DNA from: Eubacteriales bacterium
GTDB taxonomy: Bacteria; Bacillota; Clostridia; Christensenellales; Aristaeellaceae
Assembly: GCA_031549325.1 (NCBI GenBank)
Contig: JAVBQA010000018.1
Location: 18,621-82,620 of the forward strand
Reading direction: 5' to 3'
DNA: 64,000 nt
Positions 18,456 through 42,277 of this stretch are shown here, in pieces. The notes beneath the pieces are model-generated. The model was not told the origin of the DNA. It saw only the letters and a program-made list of their open reading frames with translations, and searched no databases. The position numbers and the translations under genes were made by a program. Position 1 is the stretch's first letter. Every line of letters begins with the position of its first letter.

Positions 18456-19436
18456 TTAGCTTTGCGTCATGGTGCAGCCGCAGCGCGGGCACAGCGAGGA
18501 ATTGCAGGCGCCGCAGGTGGTGCCACAATTCGAGCAGGTGCTGGTGCTGGTGTAGACGGTGCCCATCACCTGGTTGATGTTGGCCATGCAGCTGGCGCCG
18601 CTGGCGTTGACGGTGTTGCAGTTGATGGTCGTCGGGCCGGGTTTCTGCGGGAACAGAGGCAGGCTGAAGAACTCGTCGCATACATTTTCAGCAAACTCTT
18701 CGCAGGGCGGGATCTGGCAGAAGCCATAGGAGGGAATCATCACTTCCACTTCGGCCAGGATCTTCAGCACGACGGTGACGCAGATGGTGATTTCGAACTT
18801 GCAATTCCCTATGTAATTGCCGGTGACGCAGATCGCGCTGACCAGGCTCTCCAGCGTGAAGGGCACGATGGACTCCTCGGGGATGGCGAGCAGCACGTCC
18901 TTCTGAACCGAGACCACGGCGGTACCCATCCACTCCTGGCAGCGGTCGTCCGTGAACAGCACGTCGATCGGGATGTCCACCAGGCCCTTGATGCGGGCGA
19001 ACTGGGGACGGTCGCACATGCGGTCGATGGACAGGTTCCGGATGACGCCCTTGGTGTTGGCCGAACGGCAGCTCTCAAAGTTCCATTGGCCGATGGGGGT
19101 GGGCAGCGGGCAGGGGGAGTTCTCGGCATTATGTACGGCTTGCTCGTGGGTCAGCACCCCGCCACAGTTGGGGCACTCGCAGTTGCAGGTGTTGGCCACG
19201 CAGGTGCAGGTGCAGCCTCGGCCCGAGCCAATGTTCCGGCAGTTGGGATCGGGCAGCACCGGCACGATGTTGGCCACGGTGACGACCACGTCATCCAGCT
19301 GCTCCTGCTGCAGGCAGGCGTCGTACACGTTCTTGACCTGCACGCAGATCCTTTCGTTCAGTCCGCCGCAGATGTTGCCGGTCACCGTCCCGGGACACAG
19401 CTCAGCGTTGGCGTTCTTGTAGCTATAAAACGACAT
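18456..19436 (-). CDS. cysteine-rich hypothetical protein (possible spore coat/exosporium-type protein)
   Basis: ORF 18456..19559. ATG 19436 (MSFYSYK) lies 7 nt after GGAGG. 326 aa with more than 40 Cys, including clusters GCTCTCVANTCNCECPNCGG and TCSNCGTTCGACNSSLCPRCGC. No signal peptide or TM segment. Confidence 0.7.
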   Translation of the reverse strand: MSFYSYKNANAELCPGTVTGNICGGLNERICVQVKNVYDACLQQEQLDDVVVTVANIVPVLPDPNCRNIGSGRGCTCTCVANTCNCECPNCGGVLTHEQAVHNAENSPCPLPTPIGQWNFESCRSANTKGVIRNLSIDRMCDRPQFARIKGLVDIPIDVLFTDDRCQEWMGTAVVSVQKDVLLAIPEESIVPFTLESLVSAICVTGNYIGNCKFEITICVTVVLKILAEVEVMIPSYGFCQIPPCEEFAENVCDEFFSLPLFPQKPGPTTINCNTVNASGASCMANINQVMGTVYTSTSTCSNCGTTCGACNSSLCPRCGCTMTQS

Positions 19437-19626
19437 GCGCATACCTCCTTGATGTCTCCTGGGGCGAATTCGCCCACACTGCATGGTATGCCCGAGTGCC
19501 CAAAGCGTGAAAGAACCGGAGACGACGATTCCGGGCCCGCTGCATGAAGCTGGAAACAAAACGGGCGGCCCATGCGTCTAAGGGATTGTCCCCGCGAACA
19601 GGCGGGCGAAAAGGAGGAAAAACCGC

Positions 19627-34794: not shown

Positions 34795-34931
34795 CGGGCC
34801 GGCGGGCGTGAAACCGCCGGGAAATTGTTGAAAAACAGACCGAAGTATGAGATAATGAACCGAAACCTGCCGAGAGGCCGGATGGGAAACAAACGAGCGT
34901 GGTTCCAAAGAATACCAAAGGAGATGAAACC

Positions 34932-36827
34932 GTGAAAAAGTCCTTGATTTGCCTGGTTTGCCTGTTGCTTGCGCTGTGCGCGCCCGCGTTTTCCGCCATG
35001 GCCGGCGCGGAGCCCGAGGCCTCCGTGATGGCGCTGTCGGACGGCGGCGTCAGCGTGTACATCGGCGAAAACAACGCGGTCTGCGAGGCGGGCGCGAGCC
35101 AGCCGCTATTTGACGGGCCTGCGGCCTCCATCCAGTACGCCGATCAGAGCGTGATCGTGTTTACGACGGTGGACGAGTCGGGCGTCGGCCTGTACGCCGC
35201 GCCCCGCAACCTGTACAGCCTGGCGCTGCGCGGCGACGCCGGCCCGCGCCTGATCGCGGCCGCCGGCAACGAGTGCGTGTATGTGCCGCGCGACGGGCTG
35301 GTGTACTTCATCGACCAGCAGGAAGACAGCGAGCTTCGGGGCTACAATCCGCTCACCGGCAGCTGCGCCAAGGTGTGTTCCCTGGCCAGTGAGGTGCAGG
35401 CGCTGCGCGCCTCCATCGACGGCCTGCTGCTGTCCACCGCCGGCGGCGACCTGCTGCTGGTGCCCGCCACGGGCGAGCTGATCAATGCGCCGGTTCAGAC
35501 CCAGGGCGTGACCGTCCAGGTGTTTGACCGCTTTGAAACGCTGCTCGCCGCCGACGGCACGCTGTCGCTGCGCGGCGTCGCGCAGGGCATGGCCGACGCG
35601 CAGCAGATCGGCACGGACGTGCGCTGCGTCACCGCGCTGAATGGCATCGTGTACTTCCTCCGGGGCGAGGCGGACGGCGCGCAGCTGTACGAATATGATT
35701 ACTCGACCAAGGCCACCACCGCCATCGGCCAGTTCAAATCCGCGATGTTCCCGATGATGGCCGCCGCCGATGGCCGGGTGTTTATGATGGCGCAGGACGG
35801 CCGCGTGTTCTCGCTGAGCGCGGACAGCAGCAGCGTGTCGGTGTTCGCGCATTTCCCCACCACCGACAAGGACCCGCTGATGGCCGTGAGCGGCGACGAT
35901 CTGCTGGTGTACGACGCCTCCGCGCCGGACGGCGTCCCCCGGTTCGTGGCGGCCTACCCGCTGAACGGGGAAGCGCTGCCCACCATCGAGCCGGCGGACC
36001 CCGCCGCGACAGCCGAGCCGGCGGATCCCGCCGCTAAACCCCAGGGGGACGGCCCCCGGACGCTGTCCCGCGGCCTGCGCGGCGGCGACGTGAGGGAGCT
36101 GCAGCAGATCCTGCGCGCGCAGGGCTACCCGGCGGGCACGCCGGACGGCATCTACGGCGCGGGCACCGCGAGCGCCGTGCGCTACCTGCAATACGACATG
36201 GGCGTGAAGGAGACCGGCAGCGTCACGCCAGAGTTCATGGAGGCGCTGCGCGAAAAGAAGCTGCCCAGCTACGCGCGCTACGTCGAGATGCGCAAGGGCG
36301 ACCGGGGTTGCCGTGTGTATGACATGCAGCAGCGCCTGCACGCGCTGGGCTGGCTGGGACGCAAGGCGGACGGCGACTATGGCAGCAACACCGCCGAGGC
36401 CGTGAGGGCAGCCGAGAAGGCGCTGGGCGAGAAGGGCTCCGGCGTGGCCACCGTGAAATTCCTGGAGCACCTGTTCAAAAAGGACATGCTCAAAAACCCG
36501 GCGACCGACGACGCCGAGCCCACCGGAGCGTCCATCAGGCACGACCCGGAGATCTCCGAGGACGACCTGATCGGGCTGTGCCGATTCCTGAACGACCGCT
36601 TCCCGGGAGGCAACTACGACGTGAAGCGCGCGGTCTATAAGCTGCAGAGCAGGCTTGTCGACATGGGCTACCTGAAGAAGTCCCAGCGCTCCAGGATCTA
36701 TGACGCCGACACCTTCCTGGCGGTGAAGCGCGTGCAGAACGAGAACGACCTGCTGGCGCACCCCACCGGAAAGCCCGACAACAAAACGCTCGAGTTCATC
36801 TTCCCGGAAAACCAGCGCGCCTGGTAA
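34932..36827 (+). CDS. secreted protein with a beta-propeller-like N-domain and three peptidoglycan-binding (PG_binding_1-like) repeats
   Basis: ORF 34899..36827; GTG 34932 lies 7 nt after AAAGGAGA. Signal peptide VKKSLICLVCLLLALCAPAFSA. Repeats VRELQQILRAQGY, VYDMQQRLHALGW, VYKLQSRLVDMGY. Confidence 0.8.
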   Translation: MKKSLICLVCLLLALCAPAFSAMAGAEPEASVMALSDGGVSVYIGENNAVCEAGASQPLFDGPAASIQYADQSVIVFTTVDESGVGLYAAPRNLYSLALRGDAGPRLIAAAGNECVYVPRDGLVYFIDQQEDSELRGYNPLTGSCAKVCSLASEVQALRASIDGLLLSTAGGDLLLVPATGELINAPVQTQGVTVQVFDRFETLLAADGTLSLRGVAQGMADAQQIGTDVRCVTALNGIVYFLRGEADGAQLYEYDYSTKATTAIGQFKSAMFPMMAAADGRVFMMAQDGRVFSLSADSSSVSVFAHFPTTDKDPLMAVSGDDLLVYDASAPDGVPRFVAAYPLNGEALPTIEPADPAATAEPADPAAKPQGDGPRTLSRGLRGGDVRELQQILRAQGYPAGTPDGIYGAGTASAVRYLQYDMGVKETGSVTPEFMEALREKKLPSYARYVEMRKGDRGCRVYDMQQRLHALGWLGRKADGDYGSNTAEAVRAAEKALGEKGSGVATVKFLEHLFKKDMLKNPATDDAEPTGASIRHDPEISEDDLIGLCRFLNDRFPGGNYDVKRAVYKLQSRLVDMGYLKKSQRSRIYDADTFLAVKRVQNENDLLAHPTGKPDNKTLEFIFPENQRAW

Positions 36828-36840
36828 CCCCCGTTTCGAG

Positions 36841-36863
36841 GCGGGCGGACATCGTCCGCCCGC
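36841..36863. terminator. bidirectional terminator hairpin
   Basis: GCGGGCGGAC-atc-GTCCGCCCGC followed by TTTGCTTT. It lies between convergent genes. Confidence 0.65.
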
Positions 36864-36875
36864 TTTGCTTTGCCG

Positions 36876-37742
36876 TCAGGCGGAAGCGGGCGGTTTGAAT
36901 GAACTGAAATCCTTCTTCGCGCAGCCCGCCCGGCCGCCGCCCGCGCAAGCGCAGGCACAGGCGCACCCGGCGCAGGCGCATGCGCAGCCGCCGCCCCCGC
37001 CGCCGCCCCCGCCGCCCGAAAAACCTCGGCCGCCGCGGTAGCCCCCACTCAGCAGGCCGATGATGGCCAGCGGAATAAGCAGGAATCTGCCCAGGATCAC
37101 GAGGCCATCCGGCTCGGGGTAAGAAGACGCCGGTTCGGCGGCCGCCCGGATCTCCTCGGGCACCGGCGCGATGAGGATGTTGTCTCCATAGTGCGTGGTG
37201 ACCGTCTGGAACCGCTCGCCGCGCCGAAGCGGCCCGCGCCACTGCAGCGCTTCGGGGCCGTCCGCGTTGGAGCCGGTGACCAGGTCTCCCAGCCAATTCA
37301 CCTCCAGATCCAGCACGTCGATCTCGTCAAACCAACCGGGCACGAAATCCACTTTGTAGCCGTCATCCGCCAGTTCAAACAGGTTGTATTGCCTGATCGT
37401 GAAGCCGAACGTGGCGGTTTCGCCCGCGTGGAACTCGCGGTTCAGGTTGATCCATACCTTGGCCTGGTCGGAGACGTTGTAGCTCGAATACGATTCGGCA
37501 TCGCCGCTGACATTCAGGATCTCGTAGTACGGATTGGGCACGCCGATCTGCACCCAGCTCAGCGGGCCGTCCTCCTCGTCGTCCAGCACCTTCCAGGCCA
37601 GGCGGTAGCTGAGCTCCACAGTGCCGTCAGAAAACGGCGTCGCGTCGATGGTCAGCTGCTGGATCTCGTCCAGCGGCGCGGCGAAGGCCGGGGCCGCCAG
37701 GCACAGCAGCAGCGCCGCCAGGCACAGCAGTTTTTTCAGCAT
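36876..37742 (-). CDS. signal-peptide/TM-anchored protein (DUF2207-like N-domain, tentative) with a Gly10-(Cys-Ala)n C-terminal tail
   Basis: ORF 36876..37952; ATG 37742 follows GAGGAGG. Signal peptide MLKKLLCLAALLLCLAAPAFA, ~215-aa ectodomain, TM LVILGRFLLIPLAIIGLL. Tail YRGGRGFSGGGGGGGGGGCACACAGCACACACAGGGRAGCAKKDFSSFKPPASA. The start overlaps the stop of the radical SAM gene (ATGCTGA). Confidence 0.8.
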   Translation of the reverse strand: MLKKLLCLAALLLCLAAPAFAAPLDEIQQLTIDATPFSDGTVELSYRLAWKVLDDEEDGPLSWVQIGVPNPYYEILNVSGDAESYSSYNVSDQAKVWINLNREFHAGETATFGFTIRQYNLFELADDGYKVDFVPGWFDEIDVLDLEVNWLGDLVTGSNADGPEALQWRGPLRRGERFQTVTTHYGDNILIAPVPEEIRAAAEPASSYPEPDGLVILGRFLLIPLAIIGLLSGGYRGGRGFSGGGGGGGGGGCACACAGCACACACAGGGRAGCAKKDFSSFKPPASA

Positions 37743-39103
37743 GACGCGGCCTCCTCTCGGGCTTTCAGCGGGCAGTTCAGTGAGTCCGGCTCGCCCATGG
37801 CGCGGATGGCGGCGGCCTTGGGGTGGTTCCAGATGGCGCTCCATGGGTCGGACAGCATGTTTCCCAGCGCCGCGTCCTCGGAGAGCCAGCTCTGGCAGGG
37901 CGTCACCGTGCCGTCCGGCGCGACGGCCATGTTGCTCAGGCACGCGCCGCAAGCCGGCGTTTGCAGCCCCAGCTCGGCCAGGCGCTCCGTGGGCAGCCAG
38001 CCGGGGGAGGTGAAGGCGAGCTCCATGCCGCTTTGATCGGCGTAGGCCTTGGCTGCTTTCAGCGATTCAAACAGCGCGTCCGCAGGCAGGCGCGTGGCGG
38101 CCGATGATTCGGCCAGCGCGTTGCCTGTCAGGATCAGCCCGGAGCAGGACGCGTAGCGCACGCCCAGCCCGTGCAGAAATTCCAGCGTCGATCGGTAGTC
38201 GCTGTTCAGGCTGCACAGCGGCGTGTTCACGCTCACGTCCAGCCCGGCGGCGAGCGCGTTGTTGATGCCCTGCACGCTCTTCTCATGGCCGGGCGCGCCC
38301 ACCAGCCGGTCGTGGATGCCGGCTTCCCCGGCGTAAAGCGTCACCTGCACGCTGTCCAGGCTGGCCTCCCGAAGCGCCTGGCACAGCCCGGCGTCCAGTC
38401 GCGCGCCGTTGGTGTTCAGCCGCGTCACAAACCAGCGCGCATGCCCGATCAGCTCTGCCAGATCCGGGCGCATGGTGGGCTCGCCGCCGGTGAAAGTCAG
38501 CTGCGGAATGCCCGCCGCACGGCAATTGTCGATGGCTTGCTTCCACTGCTCGGTCGTCAGCTCCGCCGTTTCGGCCTGGGCTTGCCCGGCGGCGTAGCAG
38601 TGCAGGCAGCGCTGGTTGCAGTTCCAGCGGCCGTCCTTTTGCATGGCGCTGACGAGCAGGTCCATGCGGTGGGGCGCGGTCATGTGCCGGGCATAGGCGC
38701 GCAGGCTTAGCTGGCCGATCTCCAGGGAGGGGGGCGCGCCCCGGGCGATGTCGGTGAACACGGTCAGCATCGAGCCCAGGTCTTGCCGCAGCAGCGAGCG
38801 ACTGGTCAGCGGGAAGGCCTTCGCGCAGCGGGCGGCGGCGCGCCCGATGATGGCGTCGTAATCGGCGGGCGCCACCGGGTTTCCCCGGTATTCGTTGATC
38901 TCGTCCAGAAAGCAGCCGAGCAGGCACGCCCAGGCGAACCGCACCGGCAGCACCCACTGGCCGTTCAGCAACACCACGCTGGGCGCCTTGGAGAACGGGC
39001 GCCATTTGGGTGGCACCAGAAAGATGCGCGCCGCGCCCGGACCCTCCGGGTTCAGCGTGGCGTGGCGCACGCCCGCTGCGAAATCGCTCCGGCGGTTGAA
39101 CAT
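37736..39103 (-). CDS. radical SAM protein with a C-terminal SPASM/Twitch-like auxiliary cluster domain
   Basis: ORF 37736..39364; ATG 39103 follows AAGGGGGTG. CNQRCLHCY (CX3CX2C) sits at about residue 156 after a ~150-aa N-terminal extension. GGEPTM SAM-binding motif. C-terminal CGACLSNMAVAPDGTVTPC fits CX9-15GX4C of SPASM/Twitch, but the CX2CX5CX3C block is absent. Confidence 0.85.
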   Translation of the reverse strand: MFNRRSDFAAGVRHATLNPEGPGAARIFLVPPKWRPFSKAPSVVLLNGQWVLPVRFAWACLLGCFLDEINEYRGNPVAPADYDAIIGRAAARCAKAFPLTSRSLLRQDLGSMLTVFTDIARGAPPSLEIGQLSLRAYARHMTAPHRMDLLVSAMQKDGRWNCNQRCLHCYAAGQAQAETAELTTEQWKQAIDNCRAAGIPQLTFTGGEPTMRPDLAELIGHARWFVTRLNTNGARLDAGLCQALREASLDSVQVTLYAGEAGIHDRLVGAPGHEKSVQGINNALAAGLDVSVNTPLCSLNSDYRSTLEFLHGLGVRYASCSGLILTGNALAESSAATRLPADALFESLKAAKAYADQSGMELAFTSPGWLPTERLAELGLQTPACGACLSNMAVAPDGTVTPCQSWLSEDAALGNMLSDPWSAIWNHPKAAAIRAMGEPDSLNCPLKAREEAASC

Positions 39104-39129
39104 ATAATTCGCACCCCCTTGATGGGGAT

Positions 39130-39159
39130 AGTATACAATGCATGGCGTCACCGATGCAA
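39130..39159 (-). promoter_or_regulatory. candidate sigma-A promoter of the radical SAM two-gene operon
   Basis: Minus strand reads TTGCAT (39159-39154), 18-nt spacer, TATACT (39135-39130). It lies immediately after the hcp terminator. Confidence 0.45.
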
Positions 39160-39163
39160 GCGA

Positions 39164-39190
39164 CAAAAAAGCCACCCTTTCGGGTGGCTC
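39164..39190 (-). terminator. intrinsic terminator of hcp
   Basis: Minus strand reads GAGCCACCC-gaaa-GGGTGGCTC followed by TTTTTTG. Confidence 0.85.
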
Positions 39191-39201: not shown

Positions 39202-40767
39202 TTAGCCCATGATGGCGGCCAGATCCTGTTCCGGCGTCGAGATCGGGTGCAGCTTGAAGGTGTCCACCAGCAGCTGCAGCACATTGGGCGACAGGAACGC
39301 CGGGAGGCTCGGCCCGATGTAAATGTTCTGGATGCCCAGGGACAGCAGCGTCAGCAGGATGCACACGGCCTTCTGCTCATACCAGCTGAGCACCAGCGTC
39401 AGCGGCAGGTCGTTCACGGAGCACTCGAACGCGCCCGCCAGCGCCAGCGCCACCTGCACCGCGCCATAGGCGTCGTTGCACTGGCCCATGTCCAGGATCC
39501 TGGGGAACGGCCCGATGTTGCCCACGTCCAGGTCGTTGAAGCGGAATTTGCCGCAGGCCAGCGTCAGGATCACGGTGTCCTTGGGGGACTGCTTCACGAT
39601 CTCGGTGTAATAGTTGCGGCCGGGCTTCGCGCCGTCGCAGCCGCCCACCAGCAGGAAGCGCCGGATCGCGCCCGCTTTCACGGCGTCGATGATCGTGCCC
39701 GCGTTGGCGAGAACGGCCTCGCGCCCAAACCCGGTCATGACGCTGTCCCCGCCGTTGATGCCCGTCATGCGCTGGGTTTCGCCATAGCCACCCAGCGCCT
39801 TGGCCTTCTGGATCAGCGCCGAGAAATCCTTGTGGCCGTTGGCGTCGGCTTTGATGTGCGCCATCCCCGGATAGCCCACCACCGACGTGGTGTAGATGCG
39901 GTCCGCATAGCTGGGCTTCACCGGCATCAGGCAGTTGGTGGTAAACAGCACCGGCGCGGGCAGGTTTTCGAACTCCTTCTGCTGGTTCTGCCAGGCCGTG
40001 CCGAAGTTGCCCTTGAGCTGCGGGTGCTTCTTCAGGTTCGGATAGGCATGGGCGGGCAGCATCTCGCCGTGGGTGTATACGTTTACGCCCGTTCCGTCGG
40101 TCTGCTCAAGCAGCATCTCCAGATCCAGCAGGTCGTGGCCGGTGATCACGATGAACGGGCCAGGCTCGACGGACAGCGGCACGGAGGTCGGCGCGGGCGA
40201 GCCGAAGCGGCCCACGTTGGCCCCGTCCAGCAGCGCCATGCACGCAAGGTTCACCTGTCCGAACTCCATCAGCAGGGAAACCCACTCATTGACCGGGTGC
40301 GCGGTGCTGAGCGCCGCCATGCCCTTGATGAACCAGTGATCCACCTGCTCGTCGCGCTTGCCCAGCATGCGGGCGTGGTGGGCGTAGGCGGCCATGCCGC
40401 GCAGCCCGAACAGCAGCGTGGAGCGCAGCGACACCTGATCCACGTCGCCGTGGAACAAATCCTCGGGATCAATGGCTTCCTCGCCGCCCAGCGCCTGGCG
40501 CTTTTTCTGCACCTGGGCCGTCAGCGCGTCGATCTGCGCCTGGTCAAAGCTCACGTTGGTCACGGCGGTGAACAGCCCGTCCTCCAGCAGGTCGATCGCC
40601 GGGGCGCAGGTCTCGCCCTTCTTCTGCATGGCCACGGCCAAGCCGATCAGCTCGCACGTCAGCGCGTCCTGGGCGCCCGCCACCACTTCGTTCTTGCCAC
40701 AAACCCCGGCCACCGTGCAGCCGGCGCCCTTGGCGGTTTGCTCACACTGAAAACAAAACATTGACAT
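39202..40767 (-). CDS. hcp: hybrid cluster protein / hydroxylamine reductase
   Basis: ORF 39202..40830; ATG 40767 follows GGGGAGGA. N-terminal MFCFQCEQTAKGAGCT cluster motif. Length about 520 aa, typical of class I Hcp. Confidence 0.93.
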   Translation of the reverse strand: MSMFCFQCEQTAKGAGCTVAGVCGKNEVVAGAQDALTCELIGLAVAMQKKGETCAPAIDLLEDGLFTAVTNVSFDQAQIDALTAQVQKKRQALGGEEAIDPEDLFHGDVDQVSLRSTLLFGLRGMAAYAHHARMLGKRDEQVDHWFIKGMAALSTAHPVNEWVSLLMEFGQVNLACMALLDGANVGRFGSPAPTSVPLSVEPGPFIVITGHDLLDLEMLLEQTDGTGVNVYTHGEMLPAHAYPNLKKHPQLKGNFGTAWQNQQKEFENLPAPVLFTTNCLMPVKPSYADRIYTTSVVGYPGMAHIKADANGHKDFSALIQKAKALGGYGETQRMTGINGGDSVMTGFGREAVLANAGTIIDAVKAGAIRRFLLVGGCDGAKPGRNYYTEIVKQSPKDTVILTLACGKFRFNDLDVGNIGPFPRILDMGQCNDAYGAVQVALALAGAFECSVNDLPLTLVLSWYEQKAVCILLTLLSLGIQNIYIGPSLPAFLSPNVLQLLVDTFKLHPISTPEQDLAAIMG

Positions 40768-40807
40768 TTTTTTAATCCTCCCCTTGATTGCTAATGATAG
40801 GATGCGC

Positions 40808-41524
40808 TCAATGGTCCTCCAGAATTCCACCGTCCGTGCCGATTGTGGTCACGCTCCAGGGAATCATCTGGCCGCAGTTCTGCAGCGCCTGCATCGCCGC
40901 GCGCTGAAGCCCGCCGCAGCAGGGCACTTCCATGCGCACGATGGTTACGCTTTTGATCCGGTTGTGCGTCAGGATCTCGGTCAGCTTCTCGCTGTAGTCC
41001 ACGTCGTCCAGCTTGGGGCATCCGATGATGGTGACCTTGTTTTTCATGAACCCCTGATGGAAGTTGGCGTGGGCGTAGGCGGCGCAATCGGCGGCGATCA
41101 GCAGGTGCGCGCCGTCGAAATAGGGCGCGTTCACCGGCACCAGCTGGATCTGCACCGGCCACTGGTTCAGCTGGGACGTGGGCACGGCGCTGGGCGCGGC
41201 GGACACCACCGGCGCGGCCGCCCGCTCGATTTTGCGCGCGTGGCTGCCTGGGCAGCCGCAGGGCAGGGGTTCCGCCTTGGGTTGCGCCTTTTGCATGTTG
41301 GCCTGCACGGCCTCGTGGTCATAGGGCAGCGCCTCGCGCTCCACAAAAGAAATCGCGTCCACGGGGCAGGCGGGCAGGCAGTTGCCCAAGCCGTCGCAAT
41401 AGTCGTCGCGCACCAGCGTTGCCTTGCCGTCGATCAGCTGCAGCGCGCCCTCCTGGCACGCCGACACGCACAGCCCGCAGCCGTTGCACTTGTCTCGGTC
41501 GATCTGAATGATCTGGCGTTTCAT
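40808..41524 (-). CDS. 4Fe-4S dicluster ferredoxin-domain protein (Hcp partner)
   Basis: The last 238 codons of the artefactual 779-aa ORF 40808..43147. ATG 41524 follows AAGGAGGG. CNGCGLCVSACQ and CDGLGNCLPACP motifs. Cotranscribed with hcp. Confidence 0.85.
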   Translation of the reverse strand: MKRQIIQIDRDKCNGCGLCVSACQEGALQLIDGKATLVRDDYCDGLGNCLPACPVDAISFVEREALPYDHEAVQANMQKAQPKAEPLPCGCPGSHARKIERAAAPVVSAAPSAVPTSQLNQWPVQIQLVPVNAPYFDGAHLLIAADCAAYAHANFHQGFMKNKVTIIGCPKLDDVDYSEKLTEILTHNRIKSVTIVRMEVPCCGGLQRAAMQALQNCGQMIPWSVTTIGTDGGILEDH

Positions 41525-41580
41525 GTGAATCCCTCCTTGACTTCGCACCTTTATCATACTATACTTGAGCCAAACAATCG

Positions 41581-41594
41581 GTTGCATCTGCAAC
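41581..41594. promoter_or_regulatory. 14-bp palindrome in the divergent ferredoxin-hcp / Crp-Fnr intergenic region; candidate HcpR-type operator
   Basis: GTTGCA-tc-TGCAAC has perfect 6-bp arms. Its centre lies about 29 nt upstream of a TATGAT -10-like hexamer on the minus strand, a class II-like position. Confidence 0.35.
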
Positions 41595-41608
41595 AAAAGG
41601 AGATTTTT

Positions 41609-42277
41609 GTGCACAATTTTTTGGATCTGATTGGCAGCTGCCCGCTGTTTGCGGGGGTCGGGCCGGAGGAGATCCGCCAGATGCTCCAATGCCTGGGCGC
41701 GCGGGGGGAGGACGTTCCCAAGGACGGTTTCGCGATGATGGCGGGGGACACCCCCGACCACGTGGGCGTCGTGCTGGCGGGAGAGCTGCGCGTGCTGCGC
41801 GAGGACGCGATGGGCGGCAGGGCGCTGCTGGCCACGCTGGGGCCGGGCGACCTGTTCGCCGAGGCGCTGGCCTGCGCGCACATCGCGAAAAGTCCGGTCA
41901 GCGTGGTGGCCACGCAGCCGTCCCGCGTGCTCAGGCTGGCGTTCGGGCGCATCCTCAGCACATGCCCAAGCGCGTGCGCGTTTCACGCGAAGCTGGTGGA
42001 GAACATGCTCGGCATCGTGGCCAGAAAGAGCATGGCGCTGCAGTCGCGCATGGAGATTCTGGAGCAAAAGAGCATCCGCGGGCGCATCCTGCGCTACCTG
42101 CTGACCCAGGGCGCGCCGGGCGAGTGGCTGCGCGTGCCGCTGGACCGGAACGCACTGGCCGACTACCTGGCGGTGGACCGGAGCGCGCTGTCCCGCGAGC
42201 TGTCGCGCATGGCGGCCGAGGGCGTGCTGGCCTATAAAAAGAGCGAGTTCCGCCTGCTGGTGGATCAGGCGATTTGA
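41609..42277 (+). CDS. Crp/Fnr family transcriptional regulator (HcpR-like by context)
   Basis: ORF 40784..42277; GTG 41609 follows AAGGAGA. cNMP-binding-like N-domain (CPLFAGVGPEEI) and a C-terminal HTH (RNALADYLAVDRSALSRELSRM). Confidence 0.85.
   Translation: MHNFLDLIGSCPLFAGVGPEEIRQMLQCLGARGEDVPKDGFAMMAGDTPDHVGVVLAGELRVLREDAMGGRALLATLGPGDLFAEALACAHIAKSPVSVVATQPSRVLRLAFGRILSTCPSACAFHAKLVENMLGIVARKSMALQSRMEILEQKSIRGRILRYLLTQGAPGEWLRVPLDRNALADYLAVDRSALSRELSRMAAEGVLAYKKSEFRLLVDQAI

Follow-up and report, generated by a model that had tools for sequence, protein, structure and literature searches.

Two adjoining genes on the minus strand of a 64,000-nucleotide (nt) stretch of Eubacteriales bacterium DNA (GCA_031549325.1, contig JAVBQA010000018.1, positions 18,621 to 82,620; hereafter the window) encode a radical S-adenosylmethionine (SAM) enzyme and a membrane protein whose C-terminal tail carries a run of alternating cysteine and alanine residues. 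The presented analysis indicates that these genes form a robust and widespread two-gene module, which is apparently undescribed. The pair is probably a dedicated enzyme-substrate module, and the Cys/Ala tail is, with the same degree of confidence, regarded as the substrate of the enzyme. The radical SAM (rSAM) gene (37736..39103; window features lie on the minus strand unless stated otherwise) codes for 455 amino acids (aa) comprising an N-terminal beta/alpha domain, an rSAM core and what appears to be a Twitch-type C-terminal domain. The gene of the bitopic membrane protein (36876..37742, 288 aa) encodes a signal peptide, a DUF2207-like ectodomain, a transmembrane (TM) helix and the tail. Both open reading frames (ORFs) had been reported by a first-pass annotation of the window, and the ORF listing agrees with it. 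So does the sequence ATGCTGA at 37736..37742, in which the stop of the rSAM gene overlaps the start of the membrane-protein gene, an arrangement that indicates translational coupling.

The enzyme and the tail protein are inherited together

Relatives of the enzyme occur in at least 592 genomes, one genome being counted per species, and the loci of the best 80 of these relatives were fetched. Seventy-five of the loci were evaluable; four end within 600 nt of the enzyme stop codon, and in one more (L079) the downstream homologue runs off the contig. The tail gene adjoins the rSAM gene in all 75. It is the next same-strand gene downstream in 71 loci and lies immediately upstream in two (L029, L033), and in the last two (L004, L005) the tail motif is present but out of frame, after a shift in the YGG-rich spacer. 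Judged by the nearest start codon, 46 of 69 loci show an overlap of 1-17 nt between the two genes, and in the others they lie no more than 28 nt apart. The survey was also made in the reverse direction. A metagenome scan with the membrane-protein alignment found the enzyme gene directly upstream in 8 of 8 loci. The first-pass annotation had asked whether homologues of the enzyme consistently adjoin such tails, and had considered its proposal refuted if most of them lacked such a neighbour; the pairing proved consistent from both sides.

The all-against-all clustering of ORFs from 88 loci showed that the rSAM and tail-protein families alone are conserved. No conserved protease, exporter or regulator stood beside the pair in this clustering; the third cluster by size holds generic ABC ATPases, the position of which varies, and the fourth is made up of shadow ORFs that lie opposite the tail gene. 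In some loci two or three tail-protein paralogues, in tandem or nearby, accompany one rSAM gene (L002, L031, L071), an arrangement that, by analogy, resembles the multi-precursor loci of RiPPs (peptides made by the ribosome and modified post-translationally). One of the paralogues in L002 (7307-9962) has no tail.

The 80 fetched loci are nearly all labelled as Clostridia (Lachnospiraceae, Oscillospiraceae, Hungatella, Butyrivibrio, Allofournierella), with a few metagenome-assembled genomes labelled otherwise. Most of the genomes checked were those of gut and rumen Clostridia, human-gut Lachnospiraceae and Oscillospiraceae included, and the pair is also present, with a 4-nt overlap, in the cultured Sporobacter termitidis DSM 10068; other tractable carriers are Hungatella hathewayi WAL-18680 and Butyrivibrio hungatei XBD2006. 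A phage origin was considered and rejected; a single family member turned up among viral contigs, and it lay at the edge of its contig.

The cysteine-alanine tail and its membrane protein

The tail GGGGGGGGGGCACACAGCACACACAGGGRAGCAKKDF, already described by the first-pass annotation, is present in the translation. Its Cys/Ala motif C253-ACACAG-CACACACAGGGRAGC274 (8 Cys; 36921..36986) is, on grounds of conservation, the proposed modification site. The segment that follows, A-K-K277-D-F279-SSFKPPASA and the stop codon (36876..36920), contains two invariant residues, K277 and F279, and may act as a recognition element. The 15 residues C260-A-C-A-C-A-C-A-G-G-G-R-A-G-C274 are, together with K277 and F279, invariant throughout 70 homologues whose column identity averages 33%. 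Few features of these proteins are conserved as strongly as the motif, and therefore an important cellular role for it is likely. In 77 copies, the full set of synonymous codons occurs at each position of the motif (TGT/TGC, four GCN, four GGN, AGR/CGN). This free variation means that selection acts on the peptide, and a simple DNA repeat or an RNA element is thereby ruled out as the explanation of the tail.

Tails of the family hold 6-14 Cys (mode 8), compared with 0.5% Cys in the ectodomain. Between the TM helix and the motif lies a spacer of variable length (median 21 aa), composed largely of G (33%), S (12%), R (10%), Y (10%) and H (9%); the segment behind the motif is rich in Lys, with a median length of 22 aa. 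In some tails the sequence is (C-A-S-S)n, a CXXX repeat. A period-two spacing is visible in C260/262/264/266 and, after the GGG turn, in G273, [S/A/T]275, K277 and F279; speculatively, this pattern would fit a nested beta-hairpin ladder. A full hidden Markov model (HMM) scan for the membrane protein among 1.84 billion representatives (E<=1e-3) gave 954 clusters at 50% identity. The canonical motif is present in 113 of 138 further best-scoring 50%-cluster representatives, rare variants being GSGRAGC, GGGRVGC and SSGRAGC, and the remaining members of this set are mostly fragments or frameshifted translations.

Free-standing small precursors with the tail motif were also sought. The tail-only search gave 18 ORFs of 43-81 aa, of which the inspected ones were fragments of interrupted genes, and this candidate was rejected. 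Four proteins beginning with 'MEDMDIMED' (P0254-57) are a frameshifted reading of the YGGYGYYGGY spacer. The YGG/HH-rich spacer is often broken in assemblies, by frameshifts (L004:7308-8260, L005:2240-3190) or by an in-frame stop (L089:1-498); such interruptions may be sequencing or assembly errors in a repetitive stretch, or a real slippage resembling phase variation. An orphan ORF of 73 aa with the complete tail motif (L090:5001-5222) follows the gene of a 2323-aa surface protein, and the translated start of the gene after it resembles argininosuccinate synthase. The same arrangement is repeated in L091 and L092, the three contigs coming from related samples. The orphan, which might also be a free-standing peptide, has the look of a deletion relic.

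The AlphaFold2 (AF2) model of the membrane protein has a predicted local distance difference test score (pLDDT) of 80 and comprises a helix (residues 2-21), a beta-sandwich (25-184), a TM helix (213-232) and a disordered end (233-288). The extracytoplasmic beta-sandwich domain, delimited as about residues 22-205 (37128..37679), is mostly modelled with pLDDT >90. The TM helix (37047..37106) coincides with the one TM segment that a hydropathy scan of the family places at the equivalent position, and the following Gly/Arg-rich spacer, residues 233-252 (36987..37046), has pLDDT <50 and is predicted to be flexible and cytoplasmic. The N-terminal hydrophobic helix of the window protein looks like a cleavable signal peptide with the end AFA|AP. 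Charge statistics of 116 homologues gave a mean of 3.3 K+R before the first hydrophobic segment and of 3.2 and 3.9 D+E on the two outer flanks. A topology with the N terminus in, the ectodomain out and the tail in is predicted from this charge bias, taken together with the signal peptide and the single TM helix. Because the charge pattern fits a tail-in orientation, the tail is predicted to share a compartment with the enzyme, on which there is no signal peptide.

The N-terminal domain of DUF2207 (PF09972) is matched weakly by 45 of 70 homologues (best E 6.2e-7), and one source annotates a homologue as 'DUF2207 domain'. The window protein itself matches no Pfam model, DUF2207 included (no match at E<=0.1), and no NCBIfam model. 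A Foldseek search with the predicted ectodomain (E ~1e-7) retrieved the lumenal domain of ribophorin-I/OST1 as well as the N-terminal domain of M1 aminopeptidases; for a DUF2207-like domain this structural link is unexpected. In a sub-variant of the membrane protein, seen in L079 (1288-2358) and in the proteins P0375 and P0381, a cytoplasmic zinc-ribbon-like CxxC...CxxC comes after the TM helix; in L079 the rSAM gene is upstream, and the contig stops before the C terminus of the protein.

The radical SAM enzyme

The enzyme belongs to the radical SAM superfamily, as Pfam Radical_SAM (PF04055) matches residues 162-295 with 72.4 bits against a cut-off of 29.5. The ligands of the SAM-binding [4Fe-4S] cluster form a CX3CX2C motif (CNQRCLHC in the translation; 38597..38620), which is invariant in 71 homologues. 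The first-pass annotation had placed this motif at about residue 156, and the position has to be corrected to C162, C166 and C169. It had also noticed that the C-terminal segment fits CX9-15GX4C and lacks the CX2CX5CX3C block, and here it was right. The segment CLSNMAVAPDGTVTPC (C388...G398xxxxC403) is the first half of the SPASM motif, and only C444 follows C403, so that the full seven-Cys SPASM pattern is not present in the window enzyme. Pfam SPASM matches residues 385-440 with 35 bits (cut-off 21.5). Since CX2CX5CX3C is missing, the C-terminal domain appears, from its sequence, to be Twitch-like, with Cys sufficient for one auxiliary cluster. The Twitch-type region, C385-x2-C388-x9-G398-x4-C403 ... 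C444 (37772..37951), provides four invariant Cys columns, and SkfB, BtrN and MoaA are all significant matches to the enzyme. Seven Cys (C162, C166, C169, C385, C388, C403 and C444) are invariant both in an alignment of 24 homologues and in one of 71. Beyond these, C297 is invariant in 24 sequences and conserved in >=90% of 71, and C320 is ~90% conserved.

The enzyme was compared with the curated whole-protein cut-offs of NCBIfam release 20.0. No model claims it. The best of 58 matches reaches 89.9 bits against a cut-off of 650, and none of the 25 best attains its own cut-off; the families thus not reached also include GeoRSP, ScmE/F, TIGR04133, ACGX and Tes. The HMM search suggested by the first-pass annotation therefore assigns the enzyme to no family with a known, unrelated substrate. 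The AF2 model is of good quality (pLDDT 89, predicted template modelling score 0.89). In a Foldseek search of the PDB it matches SkfB first (2e-16, 440 aligned columns) and then SuiB and CteB, the alignments covering 425-460 columns; these three top fold matches are all RiPP maturases. The sequence-profile search of the PDB likewise gave the thioether synthase SkfB as the best match (1.5e-17), followed by GDGT-MAS for the core residues 164-262 only.

The N-terminal domain (about residues 1-135; 38699..39103) is a candidate substrate-recognition module. An RiPP recognition element (RRE) is an N-terminal PqqD-like winged-helix domain that binds the precursor and has three strands followed by three helices. 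In the enzyme, four strands (13-17, 25-30, 42-46, 50-54) are followed by three helices (56-72, 79-96, 102-120), an order that we take to resemble that of an RRE. H14, G23, R26 and P125 are invariant in the family. The role of this domain as a recognition module, already suggested by the first-pass annotation, is plausible, as judged from the model. Its best database matches, the actin-binding domains of utrophin and dystrophin, are weak (E 0.03) and not meaningful.

Three of the eight loci found from the tail side (L083, L084, L085) contain deep relatives, whose enzymes are 31-39% identical to that of the window over the aligned regions, the comparison with the L085 enzyme being confined to residues 288-435. 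The enzyme gene is complete in L083 and L084 (31-35% identity), and its product there keeps both the N-terminal domain and a complete CX2CX5CX3C. The partners in all three loci (L083:1951-3057, L084:4950-6248, L085:555-1514) end in CACACACAGGG[GA]AGC, those in L083 and L084 being DUF2207-like. Deep relatives with full SPASM domains thus keep the tail partner, and therefore the pairing is older than the loss of the second auxiliary cluster. The change of the motif R to G/A accompanies the two-cluster enzymes, and the tails of L083 and L085 have an extra H-x-CPVC after the motif.

Proposed mechanism and alternative explanations

Strict co-inheritance, translational coupling, a maturase architecture and a Cys-rich peptide in the same predicted compartment make the tail as substrate the simplest account of these results, which supports the proposal of the first-pass annotation that the downstream membrane protein may be the substrate. 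According to the mechanism that we propose, the 288-aa protein would insert in the membrane with the beta-sandwich outward and the last ~55 residues cytoplasmic. The cytoplasmic rSAM enzyme would dock on the tail through its N-terminal beta/alpha domain, probably by reading the invariant GGGRAGC-x-x-K-x-F end. The CX3CX2C cluster would cleave SAM to the 5'-deoxyadenosyl radical, and the enzyme, with a single Twitch-type auxiliary cluster, would modify the invariant (Cys-Ala)n block. By analogy with SkfB, CteB and related enzymes, carbons of nearby residues may be linked to Cys thiolates, which the auxiliary cluster possibly presents. The most likely product of such a reaction would be Cys-derived thioether cross-links of the sactionine or ranthionine type, which would turn a floppy tail into a rigid ladder. 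The modified protein would then remain in the membrane, no protease or exporter accompanying the pair. Thioether formation is suggested here tentatively and by analogy, at a lower level of confidence than the identity of the substrate. Taken as a whole, the pair may represent a new class of post-translational modification, in which an RiPP-type rSAM maturase acts on the cytoplasmic tail of a permanently membrane-anchored, full-size protein and creates a multi-bridge cross-linked or metal-binding Cys-Ala knot; we consider this a serious possibility, somewhat short of being the expected outcome.

Several observations weigh against this account or against parts of it. The chemistry is argued wholly by analogy, the identity to SkfB in the Foldseek alignment is only ~19%, and the below-threshold NCBIfam matches span many chemistries (AhbC/D, NirJ, MoaA, PqqE, MftC). 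Searched against Pfam and the PDB as a single sequence or as a 22-sequence profile, the N-terminal domain gave no match to PqqD, to another RRE or to anything else. A role of the tail in binding metal or an Fe-S cluster would likewise be compatible with the C-x-C run and the His/Gly-rich spacers. The orphan tail of L090 has no rSAM gene within 5 kb upstream, and a survey of the best 80 relatives may miss orphan enzymes at intermediate identity.

The alternative that survives best, and which we nevertheless consider unlikely, accepts the tail as the substrate and assigns a different chemistry to the enzyme: epimerisation of Ala or Cys to D-residues, conversion of Cys to formylglycine or another carbonyl, formation of novel C-C or C-S bonds, or a metal-chelating heterocycle. 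Radical SAM enzymes with SPASM or Twitch domains do many reactions, several of which are covered by the below-threshold NCBIfam matches mentioned above. A Cys residue serves as the H-atom donor in radical SAM epimerases such as YydG, and the barrel residues C297 and C320 are conserved; the His/Gly-rich spacers beside the Cys block would suit a metal-binding end product. The nearest relatives in sequence and fold point the other way, being the Cys-dependent cross-linkers SkfB and CteB, plus SuiB. In addition, the anaerobic sulfatase-maturating enzyme (anSME) recognition motif C/S-x-P/A-x-R is absent from the tail, and the Pfam scan of the enzyme found no cobalamin-binding domain for methylation.

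A smaller probability is given to the explanation that the tail is no substrate at all and serves as a metal- or Fe-S-binding or docking segment, which tethers the enzyme or supplies cluster ligands, perhaps for the lost second cluster, the enzyme acting on something else. A C-x-C-x-C-x-C run, 6-14 Cys and His/Gly-rich spacers do resemble metal-binding tails, and a disordered tail could fold upon metal binding. It also fits such a role that the window enzyme is without the CX2CX5CX3C block that its distant relatives have. These full-SPASM relatives, however, keep the tail partner too, and therefore the tail is not merely a compensation for the lost cluster. Moreover, the invariance of residues that are no ligands (A, G-G-G-R-A-G, K, F) exceeds what simple metal binding needs, and the architecture and the fold matches are those of peptide maturases.

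It is very improbable that the enzyme modifies a membrane lipid or a small molecule, like Tes/GDGT-MAS or bacterial MSS, with the membrane protein as a recruiter only. GDGT-MAS is the second-best PDB sequence match, again for the core alone, and the family occurs in Butyrivibrio, which is known for its diabolic-acid lipids (PMC13159169). The NCBIfam Tes model, however, scores 44 bits against a cut-off of 450, and the invariant Cys-Ala motif would be left unexplained. MSS homologues have been reported across many phyla, and MSS is hydrophobic near the C terminus (PMC13159169), whereas the relatives found here are almost all from Clostridia and their C terminus appears to be a Twitch domain; by this description they are set apart from MSS. 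Chance adjacency of two functionally unlinked genes is effectively refuted by the 75 of 75 and 8 of 8 paired loci, the usually overlapping start and stop, the persistence of the pairing at a divergence down to 31% identity and the lack of any other conserved neighbour.

Genomic context and transcription signals

The ribosome-binding site of the rSAM gene is AAGGGGGTG at 39120-39112. An alternative ORF of 542 aa with a GTG start exists for this gene. The 455-aa start is the true one, because homologues align from Met1 and the hcp terminator falls within the 542-aa ORF. The gene upstream of the pair is hcp (Pfam Prismane, 514 bits), and the strong terminator that the first-pass annotation ascribed to it was confirmed at 39164..39190 as an intrinsic terminator with a hairpin of -25.8 kcal/mol (z -3.6) followed by TTTTTT; it separates the pair from hcp. 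The candidate promoter TTGCAT-18-TATACT (39130..39159), also put forward there, is present in the sequence, with TTGCAT at 39159-39154, an 18-nt spacer and TATACT at 39135-39130. It is weak: the -35 element agrees with the consensus at no more than 3 of 6 positions, for which reason the consensus promoter scan made no call at this site.

The GC-rich hairpin between the convergent genes (36841..36863, not assigned to a strand) had been described as a bidirectional terminator. Its strong 10-bp stem (-22.9 kcal/mol) and a T-run on the plus strand uphold one half of that description; on the minus strand no U-tract comes after the stem. The hairpin is thus a terminator for the convergent plus-strand gene and for the pair at most a weak stop. 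The owner of the T-run, at 34899-36827 on the plus strand of the window, encodes a secreted protein of 642 aa with three PG_binding_1 domains. On the other side of the pair (39202-42277), hcp is accompanied by a same-strand gene of a 238-aa 4Fe-4S ferredoxin-domain protein and a divergent gene of a Crp/Fnr-type regulator, a cluster which we take to be an hcp stress unit. Elsewhere in the window (18456-19559, minus strand), an ORF of ~367 aa is very Cys-rich, contains the block GCTCTCVANTCNCECPNCGG internally and CSNCGTTCGACNSSLCPRCGC at its C terminus, and shows no evident tie to the pair.

Comparison with known systems

The pair had not been recognised as a described system in the first-pass annotation, and the searches agree with this. 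Neither protein is claimed by an NCBIfam model, Pfam gives generic domains only, and the literature search found nothing on the pair and nothing linking DUF2207 with radical SAM enzymes. One single occurrence of GGGRAGC in the literature is unrelated and was judged not to be this motif. The radical SAM/SPASM maturases are known mainly as producers of small peptides for secretion or as activators of a few soluble enzymes. If the proposed account is true, RiPP-type chemistry would be extended to integral membrane proteins, and a first functional handle would be gained on a branch of the DUF2207 family, the function of which is unknown. The module concerned is very common, with enzyme relatives in at least 592 species genomes and the membrane protein in 954 clusters at 50% identity.

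The DUF2207 proteins, to whose N-terminal domain the ectodomain is weakly homologous, have an ectodomain, TM segments and a Gly-rich cytoplasmic tail; S. mutans SMU.243 is an example. We know of no description of a DUF2207 protein with the (Cys-Ala)n-GGGRAGC motif or a radical SAM partner. The only functional study on DUF2207 that the literature search turned up deals with stress tolerance and biofilm in S. mutans (PMC10457818).

The Cys-repeat targets described by Haft (CXXX-repeat, ACGX-repeat, FibroRumin) likewise combine a SPASM-type maturase with a neighbouring target in which Cys are regularly spaced, and the names of the TIGR04133/TIGR04134 pair indicate an rSAM enzyme tied to an envelope lipoprotein. 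With the TIGR04133 model the enzyme reaches 57.5 bits (cut-off 425), and with the ACGX model 45.6 bits (cut-off 400), both far too low. Matches of the tails to FibroRumin (E 0.01-0.6, 10 bits against a cut-off of 45) and one match to TIGR04134 (E 5.5e-4) are compositional, and membership in these families was rejected. Moreover, most Cys-repeat targets are short peptides, unlike the 288-aa membrane protein.

QhpD, acting on QhpC, and anSME are SPASM rSAM enzymes that modify Cys in a full-size protein and not in a short RiPP precursor. The enzymes or subunits on which they act are soluble and exported, and they themselves have no N-terminal recognition domain. The anSME structure (PDB 4k37) is a significant match to the enzyme in fold and sequence, but a distant one (1.4e-5 in the PDB profile search). 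The tail is without C/S-x-P/A-x-R and the enzyme has a 150-aa N-terminal domain, which places the pair outside the anSME group.

SCIFF is a Clostridia-wide module of a maturase and a Cys-rich target, the physiological role of which is unknown. Its maturase CteB (PDB 5wgg) is among the top fold matches of the enzyme, and the SCIFF-maturase NCBIfam model is not among the 25 best of its 58 matches. The targets in the SCIFF system are soluble peptides about 45 aa long, and CteB carries a complete SPASM domain with two clusters, whereas the proposed target here is the tail of a membrane protein and the enzyme appears to be of the one-cluster Twitch type. SkfB (PDB 6efn), the sactisynthase of the sporulation killing factor, is the best match of the enzyme in both sequence profile and fold. 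It has an N-terminal recognition domain, a CX3CX2C core and a Twitch-type, single-cluster C-terminus, and it acts on Cys of a ribosomal peptide. This peptide, SkfA, is small and exported, and is encoded in an operon with a transporter and a protease. In contrast, the proposed target here is the cytoplasmic tail of a 288-aa membrane protein with no further conserved gene beside it, and the N-terminal domain of the enzyme is without detectable sequence similarity to anything in the PDB.

Summarizing, the pair is placed outside the known systems because the full SPASM pattern is lacking, no curated family is reached, the proposed target is a full-size membrane protein and no RiPP accessory genes are present. 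In its proposed way of working it is like an RiPP maturase with its precursor. Among the systems compared, it is closest to SkfB/SkfA and SCIFF/CteB, yet it is a member of neither.

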